Below are positions 22,576-58,087 of a stretch of 64,000 bases of DNA, in pieces; position 1 is the first letter of the stretch, and each line of letters starts with the position of its first letter. The position numbers were made by a program, and so were the translations under genes. Location of the stretch: positions 34,596,001-34,660,000 of the forward strand of contig NC_135808.1 of the NCBI RefSeq assembly GCF_964213995.1, written 5' to 3'. Source of the DNA: Mustelus asterias (taxonomy: Eukaryota). A model generated the notes under the pieces. The model saw nothing but the letters and a program-made list of their open reading frames with translations. It was not told the DNA's origin and made no database searches.

Positions 22576-23330
22576 GGGCAGTATTTTACCTTTTTTTGTC
22601 TAAGTGCTGGGCGGACCTGAAACTGGGAGGGTGTCAGATTCGTCTTCTGAGTGCATTTTTAAGGCCCTCCATATGCACCCTGCCTGCAAAGTTTTGAGCG
22701 AGTACATTTCACGATGCAATGCCTATGGGTGGGGCTTAACAGGCCCGAAACCCTCCCCCTACCCCCACCCTACCCCCCCTACCCCACCCCCCCCCCACAC
22801 CCTCACCCCACACCCCCCAACCCCACCCCCCACCCCACCCCACCCCGCCACCTCACTCCACACCCCCTGCCCACTGCCAAATGCCTTGTATTCTGGGTAC
22901 TCACCCACCCCAGCTGCCCAGATTCCCCGGCCGAGTACCAGGCCCATTCAAGACAGCAAGACTTGTCAGCTCTGGATTCCGGCCTGGCGGTGGGTAAGCT
23001 TTACAAGTGGCTTCAATGCCCTCCCATCACGGAGTCATTCTCGCTTTAAGGGGCCAAGCCAACCTCCTTCTCAGAGTCAGGCCAATAACAGCTCCCCCAA
23101 CAACTACACCCCACATTCACCACCGGTAATGATAATGCCCCCTCCATGCTACCCTAGTGCTGGGGTGATGGCCCTCCACTCCCTGTTCAGCTGACAACCC
23201 CGGTCTGCCATTCAGTAAATAGCCTCAAGCTTCCATTGTCCGTTGTGGGGCTGGCCTCTTGGGCCAATGCAAAACTAATGGTTCCCCAAACCTCCCAAAC
23301 TAACACATCTGAACAACATACACAAACAGT
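22576..23330. mobile_element. Harbinger-related non-coding terminus with a C-rich low-complexity tract
   Basis: Starts gggcagtattttacc (TIR-like) exactly where the CR1 stops. Confidence 0.45.
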
Positions 23331-23650
23331 ATGAAACCCGCCCACACACACACACACTGGAAAACCCACCCACACACACACACACACACACCGGGAAACC
23401 CACCCACATACACACACCGGGAAACCCACCCACACACAAACACCAGGAAACCCACCCACGCACAAAAAAAACCAGAAGCCTCACTTACACACAGACAGAC
23501 AAACACTGCGAAGCCAACCCACACACACACACACCGGGAAACACACCCACACACACACACACACACTGGGAACCCACTCGCACACACAAACACCAGGCAA
23601 TCCACCCACACACACACACGCCGGGAAACCCACCCACACACACAAACACC
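23331..23650. repeat. (CA)n-based minisatellite, unit approximately (ca)n-ccgggaaacccacc
   Basis: About ten visible variant units. Confidence 0.9.
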
Positions 23651-24312
23651 GAGTACGCCACAACAGTTACTGACTTCATTAGTAAGTACGTAGAAGACTG
23701 TGTGTCATCGAAGCTAATCCATGTGATCCTCAACCGGAAACCATGGATGAACAGGGATATCCACTGCTTTCTGAAGTCCAGGTCTGAGGCTTTCAAGTCA
23801 GGCAATACTCACCTATATAAGAAAGCCAGATATGATCTCAGGAGATCCATCAAAGATGCCAAAAGACAGTACCAGATCAAGCTCGAGTCCCAGGCTAGCC
23901 ACACCGACCATCGCCGACTATGGCAAGGTCTGCAAGACATAACAGGCTACAAGATGAAGGCATGTAAAATCACTGGCTCCAACGCACCCCTCCCTGATGA
24001 GCTCAATGCATTCTACGCCTGTCTTGAGCAAGAGATCAATGCGAGCACGCCCTCCACCCTGGAAGCCCTGGATGAACCTGTATCTGGGGTCACCATTGCA
24101 GATGTCAGAGCAGCTTTCTCAAAGGTCAACCCACAGAAAGCGACTGGCCCGGATGGGGTACCCGGACAAGCACTCAGATCCCGCACGGATCAGCTGGCGG
24201 AGGTATTCACAGACATCTTCAACCTCTCTTTACAACAATCTGAGGTCCCTATCTGCTTCAAGAAGACAACCATCATCCGAGTACCAAAGAAAAACCAAGC
24301 AGCGTGCCTTAA
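23651..24312 (+). mobile_element. Rex1/Babar-type LINE internal fragment
   Basis: KPWMN, IKDAKRQY, KATGPDGVPG, DQLAEVFTDIFNLSL, PICFKKTTII. Confidence 0.85.
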
Positions 24313-31195: not shown

Positions 31196-31820
31196 AACAG
31201 TGGCATTGCTGCAACGGCCTCAGTACTCAACGCCGACAACTGCCAGTTTCCAGATGCAATTTTACAACTCATCCGCTTCATCCTGGACCACAATGTGTTC
31301 ACCTTCAACAACCAGTTCTTCATCCAGACACACAGAACAGCCATGGGGACCAAATTCGCACCTCAATATGCCAACATCTTCATGCAACTTGGCCAATGTT
31401 GTCTACCTGATACGCTGCAGGAAAGGATGTCCCAAGGCATGGTACATTGGGGAGACCATGCAGACGCTACAACAACGGATGAATGAACACCGCTTGACAA
31501 TCACCAGGCACGAGTGTTCTCTTCCTGTTGGGGAGCACTTCAGTGGTCACGGGCATTCGGCCTCTGATCTTCGGGTAAGCGTTCTCCAAGGCGGCCTTCA
31601 CGACACACGACAGCGCAGAGTCGCTGAGCAGAGACTGATAGCCAAGTTCCGCACACATGAGGACGGCCTCAACCGGGATCTTGGGTTCATGTCACACTAT
31701 CTGTAACCCCCACAACGCGCCTGGGCTTGCAAAATCTCACAAACTGTCCTGTCTGGAGACAATACACATCTCTTTAACCTGTGCTTAACCCTCTCTCCAC
31801 TCACATTGTCTGTACCTTTA

Positions 31821-32772: not shown

Positions 32773-32875
32773 AATACTTAAGACTTGATTACCTGTAAAG
32801 ACTCGCATTCCAACCATTATTTTGTAAATTGAGTTTGTGTCTTTATATGCCCTGTTTGTGAACAGAACTCCCACT

Positions 32876-32910
32876 CACCTGATGAAGGAGGAGCGCTCCG
32901 AAAGCTTGTG
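32876..32910 (+). ncRNA. Minimal type I hammerhead ribozyme (Penelope pseudo-LTR)
   Basis: CAC-CTGATGA-A-GGAG..CTCC-GAAA-GCTT-GTG. Confidence 0.85.
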
Positions 32911-32982
32911 CTGCCAAATAAACCTGTTGGACTTTAACCTGGTGTTGTGAGACTTCTTACTGTGTTTACCCCAGTCCACATC

Positions 32983-35905: not shown

Positions 35906-38900
35906 TGATGCGCGTTATCACACACGAGGCTAGATGCTCAGGAAAAAAAGGGTTTTATTTGCTGTAACGAAGCAGCCAACAATTATATACACGATCCCAG
36001 ACTGAGGGGCTCCAGCCAGAGCAGGGACCTTTATACCTCTCCCAGGAGGCGGAGCCCGACTGGGATGTACCACAACACTACAGTACAAAGGTGTAACAAC
36101 CCCACCCTAACCCCAACAGCAACAAGTAGAACAACCCATCCCTAACCCAACAGCAACATATGTACATACTTGTAGTACTGGCCAGACCCTGGCTCAGTAC
36201 TATCTAGTGGGAACCATCGATGGTTCACCACATTCACCCCTCCTTTGAAAACAAAGGCCGGCGGGGTACAAAAAGAGAATAATTTGTCATCAGTCTATAA
36301 GTTCAGACGGTCAGGGGGACCGCACTGTCGTTGTGACCTCCTCAATACCGGTGGTGACACCGGAGTAGGCACTTGCGGTGGCGTTCTCCCCAAGGCGATG
36401 TCCAGCTGTTCCTCCACAGACTCACGGGCCGGTTGACCCTGAGGTGACGGTAATCCATGGAGTCCCGACACGCCCTGAAGTGGCGACCATCCTCTGGACT
36501 CAGGCAAGCTGTGCACGGGAGTAAAAGGGTTAAGCAATGGTCCCGATGCTGCCCGCGCCGTGTCCGGGGGGGAAACAAGAGTTATGGGGTTTGTAACAGG
36601 GGGTATGGGAGCGACAGGGGTTGCTACGTCCCCTGCTGGCGCCAGGTCTCGGATCAAGACCGTGTCCTCTCGCCCGTCAGGGTATGCCACATAGGCATAC
36701 TGCGGGTTGGCGTAGAGGAGATGGACCTGTTCGACCAACGGGTCGGACTTGCGGGCCCTTACATGTCGCTGCAGGAGGACAGGTCCTGAGTACGTCAACC
36801 AAGACGGTAAAGAGGTCCCCGAGGAAGACTTCCGAGGGAAGGAAAACATGCTCTCATGGGGAGTAGCATTGGTTGCCGTACACAGGAGTGAGCGAATAGA
36901 ATGGAGCGCATCAGGGAGCACCTCTTGCCAACGGGAGACTGGAAGGCTTTTTGACTTCAACGCCAGTAAGACAGCCTTCCAGACTGTAGCATTCTCACGT
37001 TCCACCTGTCCGTTACCCCTAGGGTTGTAGCTCGTGGTCCTACTAGAGGCAATCCCGTATGAGAGCAGGTATTGCCTCAAGTCATCGCTCATGAACGACG
37101 AGCCCCTGTCGCTGTGAATGTAGCCGGGGTACCCGAACAGGGTAAAACGATCGCGGAATGCCTTGACTAAATGTGCCCGGTCAGGTCGGTAAAAGTGCAG
37201 TTTGCATTCCGCGTATACCCGACAGCTTCTTGTTACTGACCTGACGTCCTCCTCCGAGTAGGGCAGATTGCGGGCTTTTATAAAGTGGTAGAGCCGAATG
37301 ACCCCAGGATGGCATAGGTCATTATGGAGAGCCTGCAAACGGTCCTCCTGTATACTGGCGCATGTTCCACACGAGAGGGCATCCGAGGGCTCATTGAGTT
37401 TCCCTGGACGATACATGATGTCATAGTTATAGGTGGAGAGTTCAATTCTCCACCGCAAGATCTTGTCATTCTTGATCTTGCCCCTCTGCGTGTTATTAAA
37501 CATGAACGCCACGGACCGCTGGTCCGTGATCAGGGTGAACCGTTTTCCCGCCAAGTAATGGCGCCAGTGCCTGACGGCCTCCACAATGGCCTGGGCCTCC
37601 TTTTCCACCGCTGAATGCCGGATTTCCGGGCCTTGGAGGGTGCGGGAAAAAAATGCGACGCGCCTGCCCGCCTGGTTAAGTGTGGCGGCCAGGGCGAAAT
37701 CAGATGCATCGCTCTCCACCTGAAAGGGGATGGACCCGTCTACCGCGTGCATCGTAGCTTTCACGATGTCGGCTTTTAATTTATCAAAGGCCAATCAGGC
37801 CTCTGGCGTTAGGGGAAAAGTAGTGGACTTAATGAGCGGACGGGCTTTGTCCGCGTAATTGGGAACCCACTGCGCATAATAAGAGAAGAAGCCTAAGCAT
37901 CTTCTCAGTGCTTTTGCACTAGTGGGCAAGGGAAGTTCGGAAAGGGGGCGCATACGGTCTGGATCAGGGCCAATGACCCCATTTTCCACCACGTATCCTA
38001 GGATGGCTAAATGGCGCGTACGAAATACACACTTCTCCCTGTTGTAGGTCAGGTTCAGGCGAGATGCAGTGCATAGGAAATTCAGGAGATTTGTGTCGTG
38101 GTCCTGCTGGTCATGGCCGCAGATGGTGACATTATCCAGGTATGGGAAGGTAGCCCGCAGCCCGTTCTGGTCCACCATTCGGTCCATAGCACGCTGGAAG
38201 ACCGAGACCCCATTGGTGACACCAAAGGGAACCCTTAGAAAGTGATACAAGCGACTATCTGCCTCAAAAGCCGTGTATTGTCGGTCCTCTGGGCGAATGG
38301 GGAGTTGGTGGTAGGCAGACTTGAGGTCTATGGTGGAGAACACCCGGTACTGCGCAATCTGATTGACCATGTCAGATATGCGCGGGAGTGGATACGCATC
38401 CAGCTGCGTGTATCGATTAATGGTCTGACTATAGTCAATGACCATCCGGGGTTTGTTCCCGCTCTTGACCACCACGACCTGCACTCTCCACGGACTAGCG
38501 CTGGGTTGTATGATCCTTTCTTTGAGGAGCCACTGAACCTCAGATCGAATGAAGATCCGATCCTCAGCGCTGTAACGCCTACTCTTAGTCGCAATGGGCT
38601 TGCAGCCTGGCACAAGATTCTGGAACAGGGAGGGTGTGGTGATCTTCAGCGTCGAGAGGCTACAGGCGTTGGGCAATTTGGAGGCTGCTGTTCTCCCACC
38701 GAAAGTGAAGGGAGTGGCCCACCGTACTGTAGGGTTACACTCCTCAAGTGGACCATGAAGTTAAGTACGAGAAGTATTGGCGCGCAAAGGTGTGGCAACA
38801 CTAGGAGCTTGAAACGCTCGTACACTGTGCCTTGCACCGTTAAAGTTACCACGCAACTCCCTAGCACGGTGACAGACCGGGACCTCGATGCCATAGAAAT

Positions 38901-40485
38901 TGTCTGTTTGACAGGTTGAATCCGGAGTCCACACCGCTTCACAGTGTCTGGGTGGATAAAGCTCTCAGTGCTCCCGCTATCAAACAGACAATAAATTAAG
39001 TGGTCATTTACCTGGATGTTCATCATAGATTTGTCAAGTCTATGAGGCTTGGCTTGGTCCAGGATGATCAACGCCACCGTTGGTTCATGAGCGCCACTGC
39101 AGGCAGCTGAAATTGACAAGGATGACCCCTGCTGGTCGTTCGCGGTTGGTGCCGACCAACATGGCCGCTCCCATAGGTCGCACGTGGGTGATGGCGCCAA
39201 ACTCCGTGACCCCTGGTGGTCACACATCTCCGACTCCGTCGTAATGGCGTCGTCCTGGCCTCGCACGTGGACGAAACCCTCGATGATTTCAACGATGAAG
39301 ACCCGGGCTCTGAGGAATCACAGGCCGCACTGCTGTTCCTAGGTTTAGATCGGCACAATTTTGAATAGTGCCCCTTCTTACCGCAGGCTGAGCACAACAC
39401 AGCTTTAGCGGGACACCGTTGCCGAGTATGCTTCGCTCCCCCACAGAAGTAACACTGCGGGCCGCCCGGAGCTGCTGCCGTCGTCTGGCCCGAGTGTGAG
39501 CACGCCATTACGCAGCATTTCGAACCCGAGGGACGAGGAAGGATTGGCGACTGCTCCTGCCACGTGGTCTTCCGGATACAATACGCGGTTTTTGGAGGCC
39601 GTCTCCAGCATCTCCGCTCGCTCGATTGCCTGGGTAAGGTCAAGGATACCTTTCTCTAGTAGTTTAAGTCGAATGTACGACGAACCGAATCCCGCCACAA
39701 ATGCATCTCGGGCGAGGTCATTCATACTCTGCTCAGCCGACACAGCTTTGCAGTTACAACCCCTGGCTAGCTGTAGGAGCTCATTCGCGTATTCCTCCAT
39801 CGTTTCGCCAGACTGCTGTCGTCGAGTGGCTAAGAGGTAACGAGCGTGTATTTCGTTGGGCGGTATAATATAACGCTTCTTCAGAAGCTCGAGGGCCTTT
39901 GTGTAATCGGTGGCTGCACGGATCGCGAGGTAGACAGTGTCGCTTACCCTCGTATGGAGGACCCGGAGTCTGTCATCATCTGTGGTGACCGCTGCGGAGG
40001 CTGCCAGGTAGTCTTCGAAACACTTCAGCCAGTGGTCGAAGGTGTTAGATGCGCCCACCGCACGTGGATCTAGTGTAAGGCGTTCCGGCTTCAGTATCTG
40101 CTCCATACTCTCTTTTTTTTTCTTCGACGAGAGTTTCTTTACAGTAAATAAAATTGATGCGCGTTATCACACACGAGGCTTGAGATGCTCAGGAAATGAA
40201 GGCTTTTATTTACTGTAGCAAAGCAGCTAACAATTATATACACGATCCCAGACTGAAGGGGTCCCAGCCAGAGCAGGGACCTTTATACCTCTCCCAGGAG
40301 GCGGGGCCCGACTGGGATGTACCACAATAACTATAATACAAAGGTGTAACAACCCCACCCTAACCCCAACAGCAACAAGTAACACAACCCATCCCCAACC
40401 CAACAGCAACATATGTACATACTAGTAGTACTGGCCAGACCCTGGCTCAGTACTATCCAGTGGGAACCAACGATGGTTCACCACA
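35906..40485 (-). mobile_element. Gypsy LTR retrotransposon A (Mag-like architecture), full length, defective
   Basis: TG...CA LTRs at 40155-40485 and 35906-36232; PPT 36233-36246; TSD gaaga/gaagg; gag-PR-RT-RH-IN order. Confidence 0.96.
36295..40106 (-). pseudogene. gag-pol: gag-pol of Gypsy A (frameshifts, stop, 153-bp integrase deletion)
   Basis: Two CCHC knuckles, FDSGS protease, YLDN RT, DASD RNase H, HSDRG and QVER integrase motifs. Confidence 0.93.
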
Positions 40486-40851
40486 GAAGGTCTCCTCGCT
40501 GCTGTGCCAGGTTGTGCAGGGCACAGCACATCACCACAATGTGGGAAGAGATCAGGGGACTGTGCTGTCGGGCTCCGCCAGAGCAGTCCAGGCACCAGGG
40601 TCGCATTTTGAGGAGCCCTTTGCACCTTTCCACTATCGCGTGGGTGGCTACATGGGCCTCATTATAGCGGGTCTCCCCTCAGTCACAGTCCTCTGCATAC
40701 GCATCATCAGACAAGTCCGCAGCGGGTAACCAAATGTCCCCCACGAGCCACCCCTGCAGCCTGGGCTCCTCCTCAAAGACCACCAGGATATCCGAGCTCC
40801 TCAATATAAAGCTGTCATGCACGCTGCTGGGGTGTCTGACGCAGACTCCTC

Positions 40852-41056
40852 CCACCCTGAACATGCAGATTGTCTGCGACCATCAAATGAACATCATGTA
40901 GGTCGATGCACGACACCCAGGGAGTGTCCATGACAGCTTTGTGATCCGGCAGTCGGATATCCCTGGGCTCTTTGAAGACCAGCCCAGGCTCCCGGGCTGG
41001 CTACTGGGTGACAAGGGTTACCCGCTAAGGTCATGGCTGATGATGCCTGTGCAGAG
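40852..41056 (+). pseudogene. Harbinger 3 transposase fragment
   Basis: LNMQIVCDHQ...HPGSVHDSFVIRQS...WLLGDKGYPLRSWLMMP. Confidence 0.88.
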
Positions 41057-41253
41057 TGTGGTGAACCATCGTTGGTTCCCACTAGATAGTACTGAGCCAG
41101 GGTCTGGCCAGTACTACAAGTATGTACATATGTTGCTGTTGGGTTAGGGATGGGTTGTTCTACTTTTTGCTGTTGGGGTTAGGGTGGGGTTGTTACACCT
41201 TTGTACTGTAGTGTTGTGGTACATCCCAGTCGGGCTCCGCCTCCTGGGAGAGG

Positions 41254-41335
41254 TATAAAGGTCCCTGCTCTGGCTGGGACCCCTCAGTCTGGGATCATGT
41301 ATATAATTAGTAGCTGCCTTGTTACAGCAAATAAA
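41254..41335 (+). promoter_or_regulatory. LTR promoter and poly(A) signal: TATAAA 41254-41259, Inr-like TCAGT 41284-41288, AATAAA 41330-41335
   Basis: TATA-to-Inr spacing is about 30 nt; the same layout is present in the 5' LTRs of A and C. Confidence 0.65.
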
Positions 41336-42943
41336 AGCCTTTATTTCCTGAGCATCAAGCCTCGTGTATGATAACGCGCATCAATTTTATTTGCTGTAAA
41401 TAAACTCACATCGAAGAAGAAAAGAAAAGAGAGTATGGAGCAGATACTGAAGCCTGAACGCCTTACACTAGATCCATGTGCGGTGGGCGCCTCTAACACC
41501 TTCGACCAGTGGCTGAAGTGTTTTGAGGACTACCTGGCAGCCTCTGCAGCGGTCACCACAGATGATGACAGACTCCGGGTCCTCCATACGAGGGTAAGCG
41601 ACACTGTCTACCTCGCGATCCGTGCGGCCACCGATTACACAAAGGCCCTCGAGCTTCTGAAGAAGCGTTATATCAAACCGCCCAATGAAATACACGCTCG
41701 TTACCTCTTAGCCACTCGACGACGGCAGTCCGGCGAAACGATGGAGGAATACGCGAACGAGCTCCTACAGCTAGCCAGGGGCTGTAACTGCAAAGCTGTG
41801 TCGGCTGAGCAGAGTATGAACGACCTCGCCCGAGATGCGTTTGTGGCGGGAGTCGGATCGTCGTACATTCGACTCAAACTACTGAAGAAAGGTAACCTTG
41901 ACCTTACCCAGGCAATAGAACTAGCGGAGATGCTGGAGACGGCCTCCAAAAGCCTAGTATTGTATCCTGAAGACCACGTGGAGGCAACGTGGCAGGAGCA
42001 GTCGCCAATCCCTCCTCGTCCCTCGGGTTCGAGATGCTGCGTAATGGCGTGCTCACACTCGGGCCAGACAATGGCAGCAGCTCCGGGCGGCCTGCGGTGT
42101 TACTTCTGTGGGGGAGCGAAGCATACTCGGCAACGGTGTCTCGCTAAAACTGTGTTGTGCTCCGCCTGCGGTAAGAAGGGGCACTATTTGAAAGTGTGCC
42201 GATCTAAATCTGCTTCTAGGAACAGCAGTGCGGCCTGCGATTCCTCAGAGCCCGGTTCTTCGTCGTCGAAATCGTCAAGGCTTTCGTCCACGTGCAAGGC
42301 CTGGACGACGCCATTACGGTCGACGGAGTCGGAGATGTGTGACCACCAGGGGTCACGAAGTTTGGCGCCATCACCCACGTGCGACCTATGGGAGCGGCCA
42401 TGTTGGTTGGCACCGACCGCGAACGACCAGCAGGGGTCATCCTTGTCAATTTCAGCTGCCTGCAGTGGCGCTCATGAACCAACGGTGGCGTCGATCATCC
42501 TGGACCAGGCCAAGCCTCATAGACTTGACAAGTCTATGATGGACATTCAGGCAAATGACCACTTGATTTATTGTCTGTTTGACAGCGGGAGCACTGAGAG
42601 CTTTATCCACCCAGACACTGTGAAGCGGTGTGGACTCCAGATTCAACCTGTCAAACAGACAATTTCTATGGCATCAAGGTCCCGGTCTGTCACCGTGCTA
42701 GGGAGTTGCGTGGTAACTTTAACGGTGCAAGGCACAGTTTACGAGCGTTTCAAGCTCCTAGTGTTGCCGCACCTTTGCGCGCCAATACTTCTCGGACTTA
42801 ACTTCATGGTCCACTTGAGGAGTGTAACCCTACAGTACGGTGGGCCACTCCCTTCGCTCTCAGTGGGAGAACAGCAGCCTCCAAATTGCCCAACGCCCCG
42901 CCTGTAGCCTCTCGACGCTGAAGATCACCACACCCTCCCTGTT

Positions 42944-43648
42944 GACGTGCCGGATCATCGACACAGATGCCATCATCTCACGTGAGAACACCATCCACCA
43001 GGTACATGGTACATACTCTTGCAACTCGGCCAACGTTGTCTACCTGATACGCTGCAAGAAAGGATGTCCCGAGGCATGGTACATTGGGGAAACTATGCAG
43101 ACGCTGCGACAACGGATGAATGAACACCGCTCGACAATCACCAGGCAAGACTGTTCTCTTCCTGTTGGGGAGCACTTCAGCGGTCACGGGCATTCGGCCT
43201 CTGATATTCGGGTAAGCGTTCTCCAAGGCGGCCTTCGCGACACACGACAGCGCAGAGTCGCTGAGCAGAAACTGATAGCCAAGTTCCGCACACTCGAGGA
43301 CGGCCTCAACCGGGATATTGGGTTCATGTCACACTATTTGTAACTCCCACAGTTGCGTGGACCTGCAGAGTTTCACTGGCTGTCTTGTCTGGAGACAATA
43401 CACATCTTTTTAGCCTGTCTTGATGCTCTCTCCACTCCCATTGTTTTGTTTCTTAAAGACTTGATTAGTTGTAAGTATTCGCATTCCAACCATTATTCAT
43501 GTAAATTGAGTCTGTGTCTTTATAAGCTCTGTTTGTGAACAGAATTCCCACTCACCTGAAGAAGGGGCTTAGAGCTTCGAAAGCTTGTGTGGCTTTTGCT
43601 ACCAAATAAACTTGTTGGACTTTAACCTGGTGTTGTTAAACTTCTTAC
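42944..43648 (+). mobile_element. Penelope-like 3' fragment (GIY-YIG plus pseudo-LTR) inserted in Gypsy B, no TSD
   Basis: VVYLIRCKKGCPEAWYIGET; removing it restores ccctgtt|ccagaatc. Confidence 0.93.
43553..43589 (+). ncRNA. Minimal hammerhead ribozyme
   Basis: CAC-CTGAAGA-A-GGGGC..GCTTC-GAAA-GCTT-GTG. Confidence 0.8.
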
Positions 43649-46329
43649 CCAGAATCTTGTGCCAGGCTGCAAGCCCATCGCGACTAAGAGTAGGCGTTAC
43701 AGCGCTGAGGATCGGATCTTCATTCGATCTGAAGTTCAGTGGCTCCTCAAAGAAAGGATCATACAACCCAGCGCTAGTCCGTGGAGAGCGCAGGTCGTGG
43801 TGGTCAAGAGCGGGAACAAATCGCGGATGGTCATTGACTATAGTCAGACCATTAATCGATACACGCAGCTGGATGCGTATCCCCTCCCGCGCATATCTGA
43901 TATGGTCAATCAGATTTCGCAGTACCGGGTGTTCTCCACCATAGACCTCAAGTCTGCCTACCACCAACTCCCCATTCGCCCAGAGGACCGACAATACACG
44001 GCTTTTGAGGCGGATGGTCGCTTGTATCACTTTCTCAGGGTTCCTTTTGGTGTCACCAATGGGGTCTCGGTCTTCCAGCGTGCTATGGACCGAATGGTGG
44101 ACCAGAACGGGCTGCGGGCTACCTTCCCGTACCTGGATAATGTCACCATCTGCGGCCATGACCAACAGGACCACGACACAAATCTCCTGAATTTCCTATG
44201 CACTGCATCTCGCCTGAACCTGACCTACAACAGGGAGAAGTGTGTGTTTCGTACGCGCCATTTAGCCATCCTAGGATACGTGGTGGAAAACGGGGTCATT
44301 GGCCCTGATCCAGACCGTATGCGCCCCCTTTCTGAACTTCCCCTGCCCACTAGTGCAAAAGCACTGAGAAGATGCTTAGGCTTCTTCTCTTATTATGCGC
44401 AGTGGGTTCCCAATTACGCGGACAAAGCCCGTCCGCTCATTAAGTCCACTACTTTTCCCCTAACACCAGAGGCCCGATTGGCCTTTGATAAATTAAAAGC
44501 CGACATCGCGAAAGCTACGATGCACGCTGTTGATGAGTCCATCCCCTTTCAGGTGGTGAGCGATGCATCTGATTTCGCCCTGGCCGCCACACTTAACCAG
44601 GCGGGCAGGCCCGTCGCATTTTTTTCCCGCACCCTCCAAGGCCCCGAAATTCGGCATTCAGCGCTGGAAAAGGAGGCCCAGGCCATTGTGGAGGCCGTCA
44701 GGCACTGGCGCCATTACTTGGTGGGAAAACGGTTCACCCTGATCACGGACCAGCGGTCCGTGGCGTTCATGTTTAATAACACGCAGAGGGGCAAGATCAA
44801 GAATGACAAGATCTTGCGGTGGTGAATCGAACTCTCCATCTATAACTATGACATCATGTATCGTCCAGGGAAACTCAATGAGCCCTCGGATGCCCTGTCG
44901 CGTGGAACATGCGCCAGTATACAGGAGGACCGTTTGCAGGCTCTCCATAATGACCTATGCCATCCTGGGGTCACTCGGCTCTACCACTTTATAAAAGCCC
45001 GCAATCTGCCCTACTCGGTGGAGGACGTCAGGTCCATAACAAGAAGCTGTCGGGTTTGCGCGGAATGCAAACCGCACTTTTACCGACCTGACCGGGCACA
45101 TTTAGTCAAGGCCACTCGTCCCTTCGAGAGACTGAGTGTCGATTTTAAGGGCCCCCTTCCCTCAACAGATCGGAATGTGTACTTCCTCAACATCATTGAC
45201 GAGTACTCTAGATTCCCTTTTGTTGTTCCCTGCTCTGATACATCCGCTGCCACGGTTATCAAGGCATTCCGTGATCTCTTTACCCTGTTCGGGAACCCCG
45301 GCTACATTCACAGCGACAGGGGCTCGTCGTTCATGAGTGATGACTTGAGGCAATACCTGCTCTCATACAGGATTGCCTCTAGTAGAACCACGAGCTACAA
45401 CCCTAGGGGTAACGGACAGGTGGAACGTGAGAATGCTACAGTCTGGAAGGCTGTCTGACTGGCATTGAAGTCAAAAAGCCTTCCAGTCTCCCGTTGGCAA
45501 GAGGTGCTCCCTGATGCGCTCCACTCCATACGCTCACTCCTGTGTACGGCATCCAACGCTACTCCCCATGAGAGGATGTTTTCATTCCCTCGGAAGTCTT
45601 CCTCGGGGACCTCATTACCGTCTTGGTTGACGTACTCAGGACCTGTCCTCCTGCGGCGACATGTAAGGGCCCGCAAGTCCGACCCGTTGGTCGAACAGGT
45701 CCATCTCCTCCACGCCAACCCTCAGTATGCCTATGTGGCATACCCTGACGGGCGAGAGGACACGGTCTCGATCCGAGACCTGGCGCCAGCAGGGGACGTA
45801 GCAACCCCTGTCGCTCCCATACCCCCTGTTACAAACCCCATAACTCTTGTTTCCCCTCCGGACACGGCGCGGGCAGCATCGGGACCATTGCTTAACCCTT
45901 TTACTCCCGTGTACAGCTTGCCTGAGTCCAGAGGATGGTCGCCACTTCAGGGCGTGTCGGAACTCCATGGATTACCGTCACCTCAGGGTCAACCGGCCCG
46001 TGAGTCTGTGGAGGAACAGTTGGACATCGCCTTGGGGAGAACGCCACCGCAAGTGCCTACTCCGGTGTCATCGCCGGTATTGAGGAGGTCACAACGACGG
46101 TGCGGTCCCCCTGACCGTCTGAACTTATAGACTGATGTCAAATTATTCTGTTTTTGTACCCCGCCGGCCTTTGTTTTCAAAGGAGGGGTGAATGTGGTGA
46201 ACCATCGTTGGTTCCCACTAGATAGTACTGAGCCAGGGACTGGCCATTACTACAAGTATGTATATATGTTGCTGTTGGGTTAGGGATGGGTTGTTCTACT
46301 TGTTGCTGTTGGGGTTAGGGTTGGGCTGA

Positions 46330-51842: not shown

Positions 51843-54800
51843 TGTGGTGAACCATTGTTGGTTACCACCAGGAGTGCTGAGCCATGGTCTGGCCAGTACT
51901 ATGAGTCTGTAGATATGTTACTGTTGAGGTTAGGGTTGGGCTGTTCTACCTGTTGATATAGTCCTATGGTACTCCCCAGTTGGCTCCGCCTTCCGGGAGA
52001 GGTATAAAGGTCACTGCTCTGCCTGGTGACCCTTTAGTCTGGGATTGTATATTGTATATAGTAGCTCCGTTATTGTTGGCAATAAAAGCCTTTATTTCCC
52101 AGGTACATCCTGCCTCCTGTGTGATTTATCACGCATCAATTTTATTGCCAATAAGTAAATTTTATTTGAAAAAAACCCAAAAGAAAACCATGGAGCAAAT
52201 GCTGAAACCCGAACGGCTTACGTTGGATCCACGTGCGGCGGGAGCATCGAACACTTTCGACCACTGGTTGAAGTGTTTCCAAGATTACCTCGACGCCTCC
52301 ACAGCGGTCCACAACGACACCGACAGACTCCGGGTCCTCCACGCGAGGGTAAGCGACGCTGTATACCTAGCGATCCGTGAGGCCCAAGACTACAAAGGGG
52401 CCCTCGAGCTTCTCAAAAAGCGATACATCAAACCGCCGAATGAGATCCATGCTCGACACCTTCTAGCCACTCGACGGCGGCAGCCCGGCGAAACGACGGA
52501 ACAGTACCTGTGTGAACTTCAGCAGCTAGCCAGAGCCTGCAACTGCAAGCCAGTGTCGGCAGCCCAGTACATGAGCGACCTAGTTCGAGATGCGTTCGTG
52601 GCGGGAATCGGCTCATCGTACATCCGCCTTCGGCTGCTGGAGCAAGGTAACCTCGACCTCACTAAAACCGTAGAGTTAGCTGACGCTCTAGAAACGGCCT
52701 CCAAAAGTCTGGAGATGTCCCCCGACGACCACGTGGAGACAGTGTGGCAGGGGCAGCCGCAGACTCCACTTTATTCAGCGGGACCGAAAAACTGCGCGAT
52801 TGCGTTTCCAGCCTCGGACCTGACGACGGCAGCAGCTCCAGGTGGCCCGCGGTGTTACTTCTGTGGGGGGGGGTGAAACACCCTCGGCAGCGATGTCCAG
52901 CTAAAACGGTGTTGTGCTCCGCCTGTGGCAAGAAGGGACATTATTCCAAAGTATGCCAGACCAAACCACTCTCCAAACACAGCAGTGCGGCGTGTGACTC
53001 CCCGGAGCCGGCCTCCTTGTCTTCTGCATCTTCGAGGTCTTCCACCACGTGCGATTCCAGGACGTCGCCATTCCTAACGACAGAGTTGCAAAACACGTGC
53101 GACCTGCAGGGGCCGCCGGTTTTGGCGCCATCGACCACGTGCAACCTATGGGGGCAGCCATTTTGGTCGGCACCGACCGCAAATGACCAGCAGGGGCCGT
53201 CATCAACCATCTCAGCTGCCTGCAGTTGCACCCACGATCCAACGGTGGCGTCAATCATCCTGGACCAGGCCAAGCCTCACAGACTCGACAAGTCCATGAT
53301 GGACATACAGGTAAACGGACGCCAGATTTATTGTTTGTTTGACAGCGGGAGCACGGAGAGCTTCATTCACCCTGACACCGTGAAGCGGTGTGGTCTCCAG
53401 ATTCGGACTGTCAAGCAGACAATTTCGATGGCGTCAAGGTCCTGGTCTGTCACCGTGCTAGGGAGCTACGTGGTCAATCTGACGGTGCAGCGCACGGTTT
53501 ACGAGAACTTCAGGCTCCATGTGTTACCACACCTTTGCGCGCCGATACTCCTAGGACTAGGTTTTATGGTCCACCTGAAGAGTGTAACCCTGCAGTACGA
53601 TGGGCCACTCCCTCCGCTTTCAGTGGGAGATCTGCAGCCTCTAAATTGCCCAATGCGCTCCACATGTAGTCTCTCGACGCTCAGGATTACCACACCCTCC
53701 CTATTCCAGAATCTCGTGCCAGGCTGCAAGCCCATCGCAACAAAGAGCAGGCGTTACAGCACTGAGGATCAGATCTTCATTCGATCTGAAGTTCAGCGGC
53801 TCCTCAAGGAAGGGATCATCCAACCTAGCGCTAGTCCTTGGAGAGTGCAAGTCGTGGTGGTTAAGAATGGGAACAAACCCCGGATGGTCATAGACTATAG
53901 TCAGACCATTAACAGATACACGCAGCTGGATGCGTATCCCCTCCCGCACATATCTGACATTGTCAATCAGATTGCGCAGTACCGGGTGTTCTCCACCATT
54001 GACTTAAAATCTGCTTACCACCAGCTCCACATTCGCCCAGAGGACCGAAAATACACGGCCTTTGAGGCGGATGGTCGCCTGTACCACTTTTTAAGGGTTC
54101 CCTTTGGTGTCACGAATGGGGTCTCGGTCTTCCAGCGTGCTATGGACCGAATGGTGGACCAGAACAGGCTGCGGGCTACCTTCCTGTACCTGGATAACGT
54201 CACCATCTGCGGCCATGACCAGCAGGACCACGATGCCAACCTTCTTAGATTCTTACGCACTGCATCTCACCTGAATCTGACCTACAACAGGGAGAAGTGT
54301 GTATTTCGCACGCGCCGCCTAGCTATCCTCGGATACGTGGTGGAAAACGGGGTCCTTGGCCCTGATCCAAACCGTATGCGTCCCCTCCTCGAACTCCCCC
54401 TGCCCACTAGCATCAAAGCACTGAGAAGATGCTTAGGCTTCTTCTCATACTATGCACAGTGGGTTCCCAATTACGTGGACAAAGACCGTCCGCTCATCAA
54501 GTCTACCTCCTTTCCCCTAACAACAGAGGCTCGCTTAGCCTTTGCAGGAATAAAAGCCGACATTGCGTAAACCACGATGCACGCTATTGATGAGTCCATC
54601 CCCTTCCAGGTGGAGAGTGATGCATCTGATTTCGCCCTGGCCGCCACACTTAACCAGGCGGGCAGGCCCGTCGCCTTTTTCTCTCGCACCCTCCAAGGCC
54701 CTGAAATTCGGCATTCTGCGGTGGAAAAGGAGGCCCAGGCCATTGTGGAGGCCGTTCGGCATTGGCGCCATTACTTGGCGGGAAAACGGTTCACTCTGCT

Positions 54801-56547
54801 CACGGACCAGCGGTCCGTGGCGTTCATGTTCAACAACACGTTACGGGGTAAGATCAAGAATGATAAAATCTTGAGGTGGAGAATCGAACTCTCCACCTAC
54901 AATTATGATATCATGTACCGTCCAGGGAAGCTCAACGAGCCCTCGGACGCCCTGTCGCGTGGAATATGCGCTAGTATGCAGGAGAATCGATTACAGGCTC
55001 TCCACAATGACCTCTGCCATCCGGGGGTCACTCGGCTCTTCCACTTCATAAAGGCCCGGAATCTACCCTACTCGGTGGAGGATGTCAGGTCCATAACCAG
55101 AAGTTGCCAGGTATGCGCGGAATGCAAACCGCACTTCTACCGACCTGACAGGGCACACCTCATTAAGGCCACTCGTCCTTTCGAAAGACTGAGTGTGGAC
55201 TTCAAGGGCCCCCTTCCCTCGACAGATCGGAACGTGTACTTCCTCAATGTGATTGATGAGTACTCATGATTCCCTTTTGTCATTCCCTGTTCTGATATGA
55301 CCGCTGCCACGGTTACCAAGGCATTATGGGATCTTTTCACCCTGTTCGGTTACCCCTGTTATATCCACAGCGATAGGGGCTCGTCGTTCATGAGCGATGA
55401 CTTGAGGCAATACCTGCTCTCATATGGGATTGCCTCTAGTAGAACCACGAGCTACAACCCAAGGGGTAACGGACAGGTTGAACGAGAGAATGCTACAGTC
55501 TGGAAGGCTGTCTTACTGGCATTGAGGTCTAAAGGTCTTCCAGTCTCCCGTTGGCAAGAGGTACTCCCTGATGCGCTCCACTCCTTACGCTCACTCCTGT
55601 GTACGGCAACCAACGCTACTCCTCATGAGAGAATGTTTTCATTCCGTAGGAAGTCTTCCTCTGGGACCTCATTACCGTCTTGGTTGACATACTCAGGACC
55701 TGTCCTCCTGCGGCAGCATGTTAGGACCCGCAAGTCCGACCCTTTGGTTGAACAGGTCCATCTCCTCCACGCCAACCCTCAATATGCCTATGTGGCATAT
55801 CCTGACGGGCGAGAGGACACGGTCTCGATTCGAGATCTGGCGCCAGCAGGGGGCTTGGAAACCCCAGTCGCTCCCACACCCCCAGTTAGGGACCCCCCGA
55901 CCATTATCTCTCCTCCTGACACGGCGCGGGCAGTATCGGGACCGCCACTTAACCCTCTTACTCCCGTGTACAGCTTGCCTGAGTCCAGGAGATTGTCGCC
56001 ACCTCGAGGCGTGCTCGAGTCCAGTGGATTGTCACCACCTCGTGGTCTACTGGCCCGTGAGGAACTGGAGGAGTCACTGGACACCGCCTTGGAGAGAAGG
56101 TCACCGCGATTGCCTGAACCGGCGTCATCGCCGGTGTTGAGGAGGTCGCAGCGACGGTGCGGTCCCCCAAACCGTTTGAACTTATTGACAGATGAACAGT
56201 TGTTCTGTTTTTTTGTGCCCCGCCGGCCTTTGTTTTAAAAGGAGGGGTGAATGTGGTGAACCATTGTTGGTTACCACCAGGAGTGCTGAGCCATGGTCTG
56301 GCCAGTACTATGAGTCTGTAGATATGTTACTGTTGGGGTTAGGGTTGGGCTGTTCTACCTGTTAATATAGTCCTATGGTACACCCCAGTTGGCTCCGCCT
56401 CCTGGGAGAGGTATGAAGGTCACTGCTCTGCCTGGTGACCCTTTAGTCTGGGATTGTATATTGTATACAGTAGCTCCGTTATTGTTGGCAATAAAAGCCT
56501 TTATTTCCCGGGTACGTCCAGCCTCCCGTGTGATTTATCGCACATCA
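51843..56547 (+). mobile_element. Gypsy LTR retrotransposon C (sister subfamily), full length
   Basis: 296-bp LTRs at 51843-52138 and 56252-56547; perfect TSD tggag; PPT aaaaggaggggtgaa. Confidence 0.98.
52190..56238 (+). pseudogene. gag-pol: Single gag-pol ORF of Gypsy C (one frameshift in the G run near 52870, stops at 54570 and 55269)
   Basis: Knuckle-PR-RT is continuous in ORF 52744..54570; YLDN at 54187-54198. Confidence 0.95.
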
Positions 56548-57309: not shown

Positions 57310-58087
57310 CCTATCCCCACACCTCCACTACTTGTCTTCAAATGACCGCGCAATCTCAAACAGACCATTGTACGCAGCAAACTACCCAGCCTTCTGGAGA
57401 ACAGTGACCACGACACCACACAACCTTGCCTCTCGTTGTCTCTCGTTGTCTACCTGATACGCTACAGGAAAGGATGTCCCGAGGCATGGTACATTGGGGA
57501 GACCATGCAGACGCTACGACAACAGATGAATGAACACCGCTCGAAAATCAGCAGGCAGGAGTGTTCCCTTCCTGTCGGGGAACACTTCAGCAGTCACAGA
57601 CATTCAGCCTCTGATCTTCGGGTAAGCGTTCTCCAAGGTGGCCTTCAAGACACATGACAACGCAGAATCGCCGAGCAGAGACTGATAGCCAAGTTCACAC
57701 ACATGAGGACGGCCTCAACCAGGATCTTGGGTTCATGTCACACTATCTGTAACCCCCACAATTTGGCCTGGGCTTACAAAATCTTTCTAACTTTCCTGGC
57801 TTAAGACAATTCATACCTCTTTAACCTGTGCTTCACCCTCTCTCCACTCGCATTGTCTGTATCTGTAAAGACTTGGTTACCTGTAAAGACTCGCATTCCA
57901 GACATTATCTTGCAATTGAGTCTGTGTCTATATATGCTGTGTTTGTGAACCCAGCTCCCCACTCACCTGATGAAGGAGCAGCACTCCGAAAGCTCGTGCT
58001 ACCAAATAAACCTGTTGGACTTTAACCTGGTGTTGTGAGACTTCTTACTGTGCCCACCCCAGTCCAACGCCAGCATCTCCACATCAT
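57310..58087 (+). mobile_element. Penelope-like 3' fragment (GIY-YIG plus pseudo-LTR)
   Basis: PRNLKQTIVRSKL; VVYLIRYRKGCPEAWYIGET. Confidence 0.9.
57964..57998 (+). ncRNA. Minimal hammerhead ribozyme
   Basis: CAC-CTGATGA-A-GGAG..CTCC-GAAA-GCTC-GTG. Confidence 0.85.

Follow-up and report, generated by a model that had tools for sequence, protein, structure and literature searches.

A Ty3/Gypsy clade of animals with a primer site complementary to its own LTR: candidate self-priming and palindromic by-products

In a 64-kb window (the whole stretch of DNA that was analyzed) of a 3.68-Gb genome, three Ty3/Gypsy copies, here called A, B, and C, carry at their primer-binding position an exact complement of a stretch located inside their own LTR. 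Throughout the clade represented by these copies, the complement between this LTR arm and the primer site is exact and 13-16 bp long, mostly 15 bp, whereas its letters vary. The pattern is real and clade-wide, and it very probably reflects self-priming of some form. The best reading of the sequences, to which a probability of roughly 0.6 can be given, is that the primer would be the internal arm of the 5' LTR, cut free directly before a conserved RCC. Self-priming had been raised as a candidate explanation in the initial annotation of the window, and it holds up as the best one because the primer site must adjoin the LTR end, occurs with 21 different paired octamers, and is tracked, among the partners seen, only by the LTR arm.

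The LTR arm and its complement behind the 5' LTR

The relevant features of the three elements are listed below, with positions counted from the first base of the window.

41057-46328, plus strand: element B, a Ty3/Gypsy copy with an insertion and a cut 3' LTR
41057..41383, plus strand: 5' LTR of B, 327 bp, TG...CA
41254..41259, plus strand: TATA box of B, whose spacing to the initiator-like motif is kept in 73/77 copies
41284..41289, plus strand: initiator-like motif of B; putative RNA start at 41286
41322..41336, plus strand: LTR arm of B, the proposed self-primer, ending in the poly(A) hexamer plus one A
Between 41336 and 41337, plus strand: proposed cut in B
41337..41340, plus strand: GCCT adjoining the arm of B (GCCT in 75/80 copies; RCC in 19/24 distant families)
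41384, plus strand: single spacer base of B between LTR end and primer site, A in 80/80 copies
41385..41399, plus strand: primer-binding position of B, exact complement of the LTR arm
41435..46130, plus strand: gag-pol of B, with two CCHC arrays, protease, RT, RNase H, and integrase and no chromodomain
42943..43649 (approximate ends), plus strand: insertion in pol of B, a GIY-YIG fragment, presumably Penelope-like
46179..46192, plus strand: polypurine tract and spacer of B, before the 3' LTR
46193..46328, plus strand: truncated 3' LTR of B, 130/136 bases matching the 5' LTR
40485-35906, minus strand: element A, a Ty3/Gypsy copy
40155..40485, minus strand: 5' LTR of A
40204..40217, minus strand: LTR arm of A, with T where B has C
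40140..40153, minus strand: primer-binding position of A, with the compensating A
35906..36232, minus strand: 3' LTR of A, 308/327 bases matching; target duplication 4/5
51843-56547, plus strand: element C, a Ty3/Gypsy copy with a perfect 5-bp target duplication
51843..52138, plus strand: 5' LTR of C, from another subfamily and ~72% like the LTR of B
52073..52087, plus strand: LTR arm of C
52140..52154, plus strand: primer-binding position of C
56252..56547, plus strand: 3' LTR of C, 283/296 bases matching, next to the perfect 5-bp target duplication

The gag-pol of B is interrupted by stops as well as by the one insertion. Elsewhere in the window, kin of the GIY-YIG-bearing fragment are located near 31374-31809, 32780-32960, and 57444-58048. 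The interval between A and B (40486-41056) holds two inverted fragments of a DDE_Tnp_4 transposase (Pfam), which we take to be Harbinger-type, and a degenerate CA-rich tandem array with units of ~28 nt is found at 23279-23680.

The pairings first noticed in the three copies were confirmed by a sequence check, in which all six arms proved to be exact reverse complements. In B, 41322-41336 pairs with 41385-41399 over 15 bp; in A, on the minus strand, 40217-40204 pairs with 40153-40140 over 14 bp; and in C, 52076-52087 pairs with 52140-52151 over 12 bp, followed by a G-U and two more pairs. In each copy the second arm begins one base past the CA that closes the 5' LTR. The G-U of C is a minor variant: the pair is Watson-Crick in 28 of the 30 closest copies, and the copy in the window is one of the two exceptions.

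The same geometry, written as the pattern AATAAAA-N42..62-CA-N-TTTTATT, has 12,012 matches in the genome versus 504 for a reversed control, and thus cannot be attributed to chance. A set of 80 full-length copies was taken from the first 100 listed matches, leaving out 5 that were chance-like, 1 palindrome, and 14 further loci. Because the search pattern fixes the outer seven pairs (positions 1-7), only stem positions 8-15 are free to count, and at these positions 601 of 640 cells are Watson-Crick, 16 are G-U, and 23 are mismatches. Fully paired octamers at positions 8-15 come in 21 different versions within this one genome. The helix also stops sharply, with exactly 15 perfect pairs in 53/80 copies, 13 bp in 10/80, and pairing at position 16 in 5/80. 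This last value is lower than base composition would predict; since the copies are related, it can do no more than suggest that a longer helix is selected against.

The compensating change that distinguishes A from B (C-G versus T-A), also pointed out at the outset, is concordant in 1,755 of 1,791 copies genome-wide. Of the exceptions, 25 are G-U and 11 are mismatched, and 8 of the G-U rows are identical and probably represent one duplicated segment. Mutations acquired since insertion could account for a discordant share of this size (in 38 copies, LTR-LTR identity has a median of 0.985).

The claim that these elements are without a tRNA primer-binding site was likewise borne out. TGG occurs within 3 nt of the LTR end in 0/80 copies, a count to be read with the fact that the selecting pattern already excludes TGG. 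When two sets of 30 copies were chosen instead by LTR similarity, the same site was present at every junction displayed (26/30 and 30/30 loci). LTR ends followed by N-TGG have 707 matches in the genome, with a variable first base; two of these are located ~4.4 kb downstream of 5' junctions, so those two are 3' LTRs, and the count is not informative on tRNA priming. ARAGORN finds no tRNA gene in the 64-kb window, and no Rfam family scores above threshold here, with two matches below it. An assembly artefact was considered and is ruled out by thousands of dispersed copies with their own target duplications, as well as by the same geometry in independent metagenome contigs.

The initial annotation had proposed examining covariation of the two arms in copies from the whole genome, and in these copies the arms do change together. 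On a ladder-like gag tree of 75 of the 80 copies, changes at positions 8-15 number 53 for the arm, 64 for the primer site, and 70 for both taken jointly, versus 117 if the two were independent. The corresponding numbers for positions 16-25 are 72, 126, and 183, and registers slid by one or two positions give 72/75, 87/97, 90/101, and 76/82, which amounts to almost no sharing. Most subfamilies are placed on one ladder of this tree, as if a single lineage had replaced itself over time.

Pairing is maintained without any slowing of change. Arm positions undergo 6.6 changes per site versus 5.98 for the fastest gag codon position, and position 8 occurs as all four Watson-Crick types (27, 18, 17, and 17 copies), which indicates that changes frequently occur with no G-U intermediate. 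Selection acting on double mutations should maintain a slowly evolving helix rich in G-U. The helix observed here is fast, nearly free of G-U, sharply bounded, and represented by all four pair types at one position, as if one arm were copied from the other. Copying of the primer site from the arm would produce just such joint change. However, progeny primer sites of Ty1 and Ty3 are described as not derived from the primer (PMC5371799), and rewriting of the site from the primer is thus not general. A fixed mismatch at position 14 in some subfamilies also counts against the copying step, because strict copying of 15 nt would erase it. Where the arms of the two LTRs differ, the primer site follows the 5' arm in 11 cells and the 3' arm in 3, but seven of the 11 cells derive from two chimeric copies, so these counts carry no signal on which LTR is followed. 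Among copies with differing LTR arms, L257 and L265 seem to be chimeras of different subfamilies. Another such copy (L282) has a perfect target duplication, and at two positions its primer site agrees with the 3' arm but not with the 5' arm.

Palindromic mini-elements at the primer site

A second type of evidence comes from palindromes. The first case, encountered among the first 30 pattern matches, consists of an LTR, the primer site, and then an inverted LTR running back to its first base, and is flanked by a 5-bp duplication. Junctions leading from the primer site into an inverted LTR have at least 124 matches in the genome versus 0 for the control, and they come from many subfamilies. Among 30 junction loci examined, 22 are palindromic mini-elements with a 5-bp target duplication, which is perfect in 18, matches at 4/5 bases in 2, and was read from the flanks in 2. 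The mini-elements measure 540-614 bp where both ends were located, and their arms are 97-99.6% identical. At four of the 30 loci the inverted half ends at the LTR start while the other half is rearranged or missing. Another four of the 30 junctions, belonging to three elements, continue past U3 for 130-680 nt into the polypurine tract and pol, which implicates the 3' LTR arm as the partner in those cases; one of these elements has a target duplication. Inspection by eye of 100 listed junctions revealed no primer copy that stops at the putative RNA start, as all run into U3, and no foreign letters at the point of fold-back. Since folding back yields the same product either way, the run into U3 decides nothing about where the RNA starts.

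These palindromes are probably by-products of reverse transcription. In the simplest origin, plus strong-stop DNA would be displaced, its 3' copy of the primer would fold onto its own arm and be extended, and the second strand would be made from a re-used polypurine primer. Ty3 is known to re-use its polypurine primer and to displace the plus strong-stop DNA made first, and a distance of ~13 bp separates its two active sites (PMC5371799). Similarly, the cDNA of Tf1 frequently terminates with the primer site copied as a single strand (PMC11042837). The palindromes show that the stretch behind the LTR truly serves as the primer site and that a polymerase has used the pairing of this stretch with the arm. 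Alone they do not tell which RNA primes, and they fit any model in which plus strong-stop DNA ends in the complement.

Certain loci are more complex inserted products (L121 at G000:C2:126045500-126052500, L226, L231, L227, and L206), with template switches at the match between arm and primer site and with inverted pieces of pol or gag. The first of these has two such junctions together with a 5-bp target duplication.

The junctions are also informative for an alternative in which the 3' copy of R primes. Here the 3' end of the RNA would be cut or trimmed to the arm and would anneal to the primer site, with priming in an RNA circle or from a partner RNA. This version is unlikely, although it survives better than the others considered below. 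The arm is indeed present in both copies of R and, in this genome, ends at the poly(A) hexamer, but the local 5' helix, with its predicted probability of 0.95, would already occupy the primer site. The four of 30 junctions (three elements) that run on through U3 into the polypurine tract and pol can be read as products of a 3' primer, yet they also follow if plus strong-stop DNA anneals to the 3' R of the RNA, and 22 of the 30 have a target duplication and extend precisely to the first base of U3 and no further.

The RNA leader, distant relatives, and a proposed priming route

Promoter motifs agree with the initial placement of the arm about 35 nt inside R. The TATA box precedes the initiator-like motif by 31-34 nt in 73/77 copies, and the motif is 50-55 nt from the arm's end in 74/77. 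From this spacing, the arm would correspond to about nucleotides 37-52 of R (37-51 in the RNA of B). The leader up to the gag start is only 23-67 nt long (76/80 copies with a start found). In 77 folded leaders the probability of the helix between arm and primer site averages 0.95, although the 155-nt leader of B, taken in its entirety, does not exceed its shuffles in stability, 189/200 of which fold as well. A second helix, formed by the GC that follows the arm and the GC close to the end of the LTR, is only weakly predicted in this genome (21-22 of 77 folds), and no conserved third helix was seen in the 17 folds viewed.

The clade reaches far beyond this genome. Its closest named RT relatives are from catshark and rays, and further ones occur in coral, anemone, spider, sea slug, flatworms, and a nematode. 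A search based on 31 aligned RT proteins yielded 80 metagenome loci with 42-66% identity. A complement of 11-19 nt behind CA is present in 31 of the 54 loci with enough upstream DNA, two of them off the standard junction, versus 0 of 54 control stretches. Among metagenome loci with a recognized gag start the proportion is 25/31. When 23 loci were re-examined by eye, most of those showing a gag start were found to carry a decayed version of the same pair, and no clear tRNA site was seen in any of the 23. Self-pairing members are spread over the whole RT tree, which is unrooted and covers this clade only. A first metagenome scan and a viral scan returned no relative, and the ESM Atlas returned only generic Gag/CCHC clusters.

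The RT of B, at 43626-44822, invites a separate remark. The catalytic motif is YxDN rather than YxDD in each of the 67 genome copies, of 80, in which it could be located. The same holds for 79 of the 113 database relatives whose motif could be called; self-pairing families with YLDD exist too. A change equivalent to YxDN blocks transposition of Ty1. A literature search on the YxDN motif found nothing.

Features of the helix itself were compared in 24 distant families, hand-picked and represented by one copy each. The spacer base is A in 21 and T in 3. RCC directly follows the arm in 19/24, and the three bases after the arm are predicted to be paired in 16/24, versus 5.0 expected from shuffled loops. 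The proposal that the arm ends in the poly(A) signal holds for the present genome and fails as a rule for the clade, for in the distant families a canonical hexamer ends the arm in only 13/24. Conservation is thus stronger at the boundary that follows the arm than at the poly(A) signal, and this favors a cut site over pure masking.

Pure masking, in which the sole role of the helix is to conceal the 5' LTR's poly(A) signal against premature termination while some other RNA primes, is improbable. It would account for a hexamer inside the helix in 80/80 copies, a count fixed by the search pattern, and in 13/24 distant families, and for a partner strand that is present only behind the 5' LTR. However, in 11/24 distant families the arm does not end in a canonical hexamer, and in three families a hexamer is located in the loop and is thus left uncovered by the helix. 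Masking also creates no need to begin exactly one base past the LTR. Furthermore, a masking helix would be expected to tolerate G-U, which is found in 16/640 cells, and to evolve slowly, which it does not, and an outside primer would have to match 21 different octamers. As a second use of the same helix in this genome, concealment of the hexamer of the 5' LTR only is likely.

No better are the prospects of a plain Tf1 geometry, in which the RNA starts at the first base of the arm, the primer is its first 15 nt, and the 15-bp boundary is simply the start site. This geometry is the documented one (PMC4600332; bioRxiv 2022.12.06.519325), it accounts for the abrupt end of pairing at position 16 with no need for further trimming, and alternative start sites are described for Tf2 (PMC5341516). 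Nonetheless, the TATA box is placed 31-34 nt before an initiator-like motif that is itself 50-55 nt before the arm's end, and TATA-like letters nearer the arm are found only in some subfamilies. With a start at the arm, moreover, no more than 15 nt would lie between the cap and the end of the poly(A) hexamer.

Priming by a host tRNA, tRNA half, or other small RNA, with the LTR match being secondary, is very improbable even though tRNA halves prime some Copia elements (PMC10886601; PMC6317226), given that the site has no TGG and varies at eight positions in step with the LTR, that no foreign letters were seen by eye at the 100 listed fold-back junctions, and that no Rfam family is above threshold.

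Self-priming from the internal 5' arm would proceed as follows. The RNA would start at the initiator, ~36 nt before the arm, and the arm and primer site would pair in the 5' leader. A cut would then fall right after the arm, before the conserved RCC that in many families opens a second, stacked helix; the cutter would probably be the element's own RNase H, as in Tf1. The freed 3' end could prime DNA through the spacer base and U5. Plus-strand strong-stop DNA would later copy ~15 nt of the primer, so that the arm serves as the source from which the primer site is renewed, and both change jointly. In some cases the single strand would fold on its own arm, be completed from the polypurine primer, and be inserted by integrase as a palindromic mini-element. 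The 36-nt 5' tail of the primer would have to be lost at some step. A primer with such a tail has no precedent in the literature compared, which counts against this reading.

Known elements and implications

The order of gag, protease, RT, RNase H, and integrase in B and C (Pfam) is that of Ty3/Gypsy, the best solved relative is the Ty3 RT (E 2.9e-50), and the TG...CA LTRs and the purine tract before the 3' LTR agree with this assignment. Several traits named in the initial annotation were verified: the 5-bp target duplication is perfect in 38 of 43 copies with clean ends, two CCHC arrays are present in B and in C, and no Pfam family, a chromodomain included, matches the C-terminal parts of B (223 aa) and C (243 aa) with E values of up to 1. 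The suggestion that the elements are Mag-like fared less well. Mag elements use tRNA primers, and that primer site is absent from the elements studied here. What stands is the presence of two CCHC arrays, a trait of Mag and also of Micropia/Mdg3 that is therefore not diagnostic for Mag, whereas chromoviruses usually have one (PMC2577118). Animal hosts are another point in common with the Mag clade, as is an AATAAA near the LTR end (PMC3601003).

Self-priming is common in the Tf1/sushi chromoviruses, where the primer is the RNA 5' end held in a structure of three duplexes (bioRxiv 2022.12.06.519325; PMC4600332). As in Tf1 and Tf2 of Schizosaccharomyces pombe, Tj1 of S. japonicus, and Tf1/sushi elements generally, the primer site of the present elements is complementary to their own 5' LTR. 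Members of the Tf1 group require an RT cut to free the primer and have neighboring helices around the primer duplex (PMC4600332; bioRxiv 2022.12.06.519325; PMC5341516). In contrast to the 5'-terminal primer of that group, the putative primer here would be ~15 nt located ~36 nt inside R, and it overlaps the poly(A) hexamer; its second helix starts right after the arm. Tf1/sushi elements also have a chromodomain and usually one CCHC array, whereas those described here have no chromodomain and two arrays. Thus, the elements would work like Tf1 but, by these two traits, are not members of the Tf1/sushi group. An origin of self-priming independent of Tf1 is likely.

Tcn1 (plant Gypsy) and TAR/Houba (plant Copia) are predicted self-primers under the rule of at least 10 nt complementary to the 5' LTR and starting 0-5 nt past the LTR, which the present elements follow as well (PMC6317226). 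They belong to other lineages and kingdoms, Tcn1 grouping with Tf1/sushi, and the sections compared here report for them no position inside R, covariation, or fold-back products (PMC6317226).

Among non-chromovirus animal Gypsy elements, Saci2/lennie and CsRn1 are relevant for comparison, as RT kin of the present elements occur in Spirometra and Clonorchis. Membership in either group was considered and rejected: the present elements have two CCHC arrays and a 5-bp duplication, whereas Saci-2 has a CCCH motif and a 4-bp duplication (PMC12471100), and CsRn1 a CHCC Gag motif, a tRNA-Trp primer site, and a 4-bp duplication (PMC2582038). Saci2 families of tapeworms have variable primer sites that the authors read as tRNA switches, and these sites are worth comparing with their own LTRs (PMC12471100). 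Three Spirometra accessions near the RT of the present elements are absent from the supplement text of that paper.

The palindromes also have parallels. Displaced single-stranded strong-stop DNA accompanies polypurine-primer recycling in Ty3 (PMC5371799), and hairpin self-extension of strong-stop DNA is documented for HIV-1 (PMC6088434). These are described as dead ends in particles or in vitro, with the HIV case involving the minus strand, whereas the products found here appear integrated in the germ line with target duplications. Further comparison literature includes PMC5753468, PMC6934838, and PMC5006619.

Searches of the open literature turned up no account of self-priming in an animal Gypsy clade outside the chromoviruses. 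Repeat-database entries reportedly call some animal Gypsy families self-primed. To our knowledge, self-primed reverse transcription has been proven experimentally only in fission-yeast elements, with predictions extending to their kin and to a single plant Copia lineage.

The full picture can be offered only tentatively, at slightly worse than even odds. It would be that of a widespread non-chromovirus animal clade with tRNA-free priming independent of Tf1, in which the primer is excised inside R (or from the 3' R) at an RCC-marked helix junction. The primer site would be rewritten in each round and drift near-neutrally, the helix would serve as a poly(A) mask in some lineages, and failed second strand transfer would give rise to integrated palindromes.

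If true, a large animal clade with an internal primer would be a second solution to self-priming within Gypsy. Such a clade would escape host control that acts via tRNA fragments, and tools that seek tRNA primer sites would miss or mis-assign its elements. The many subfamilies would provide a natural experiment on the copying of primer sites from primers, and the palindromic by-products would constitute a genomic record of an intermediate that is usually seen only in particles.
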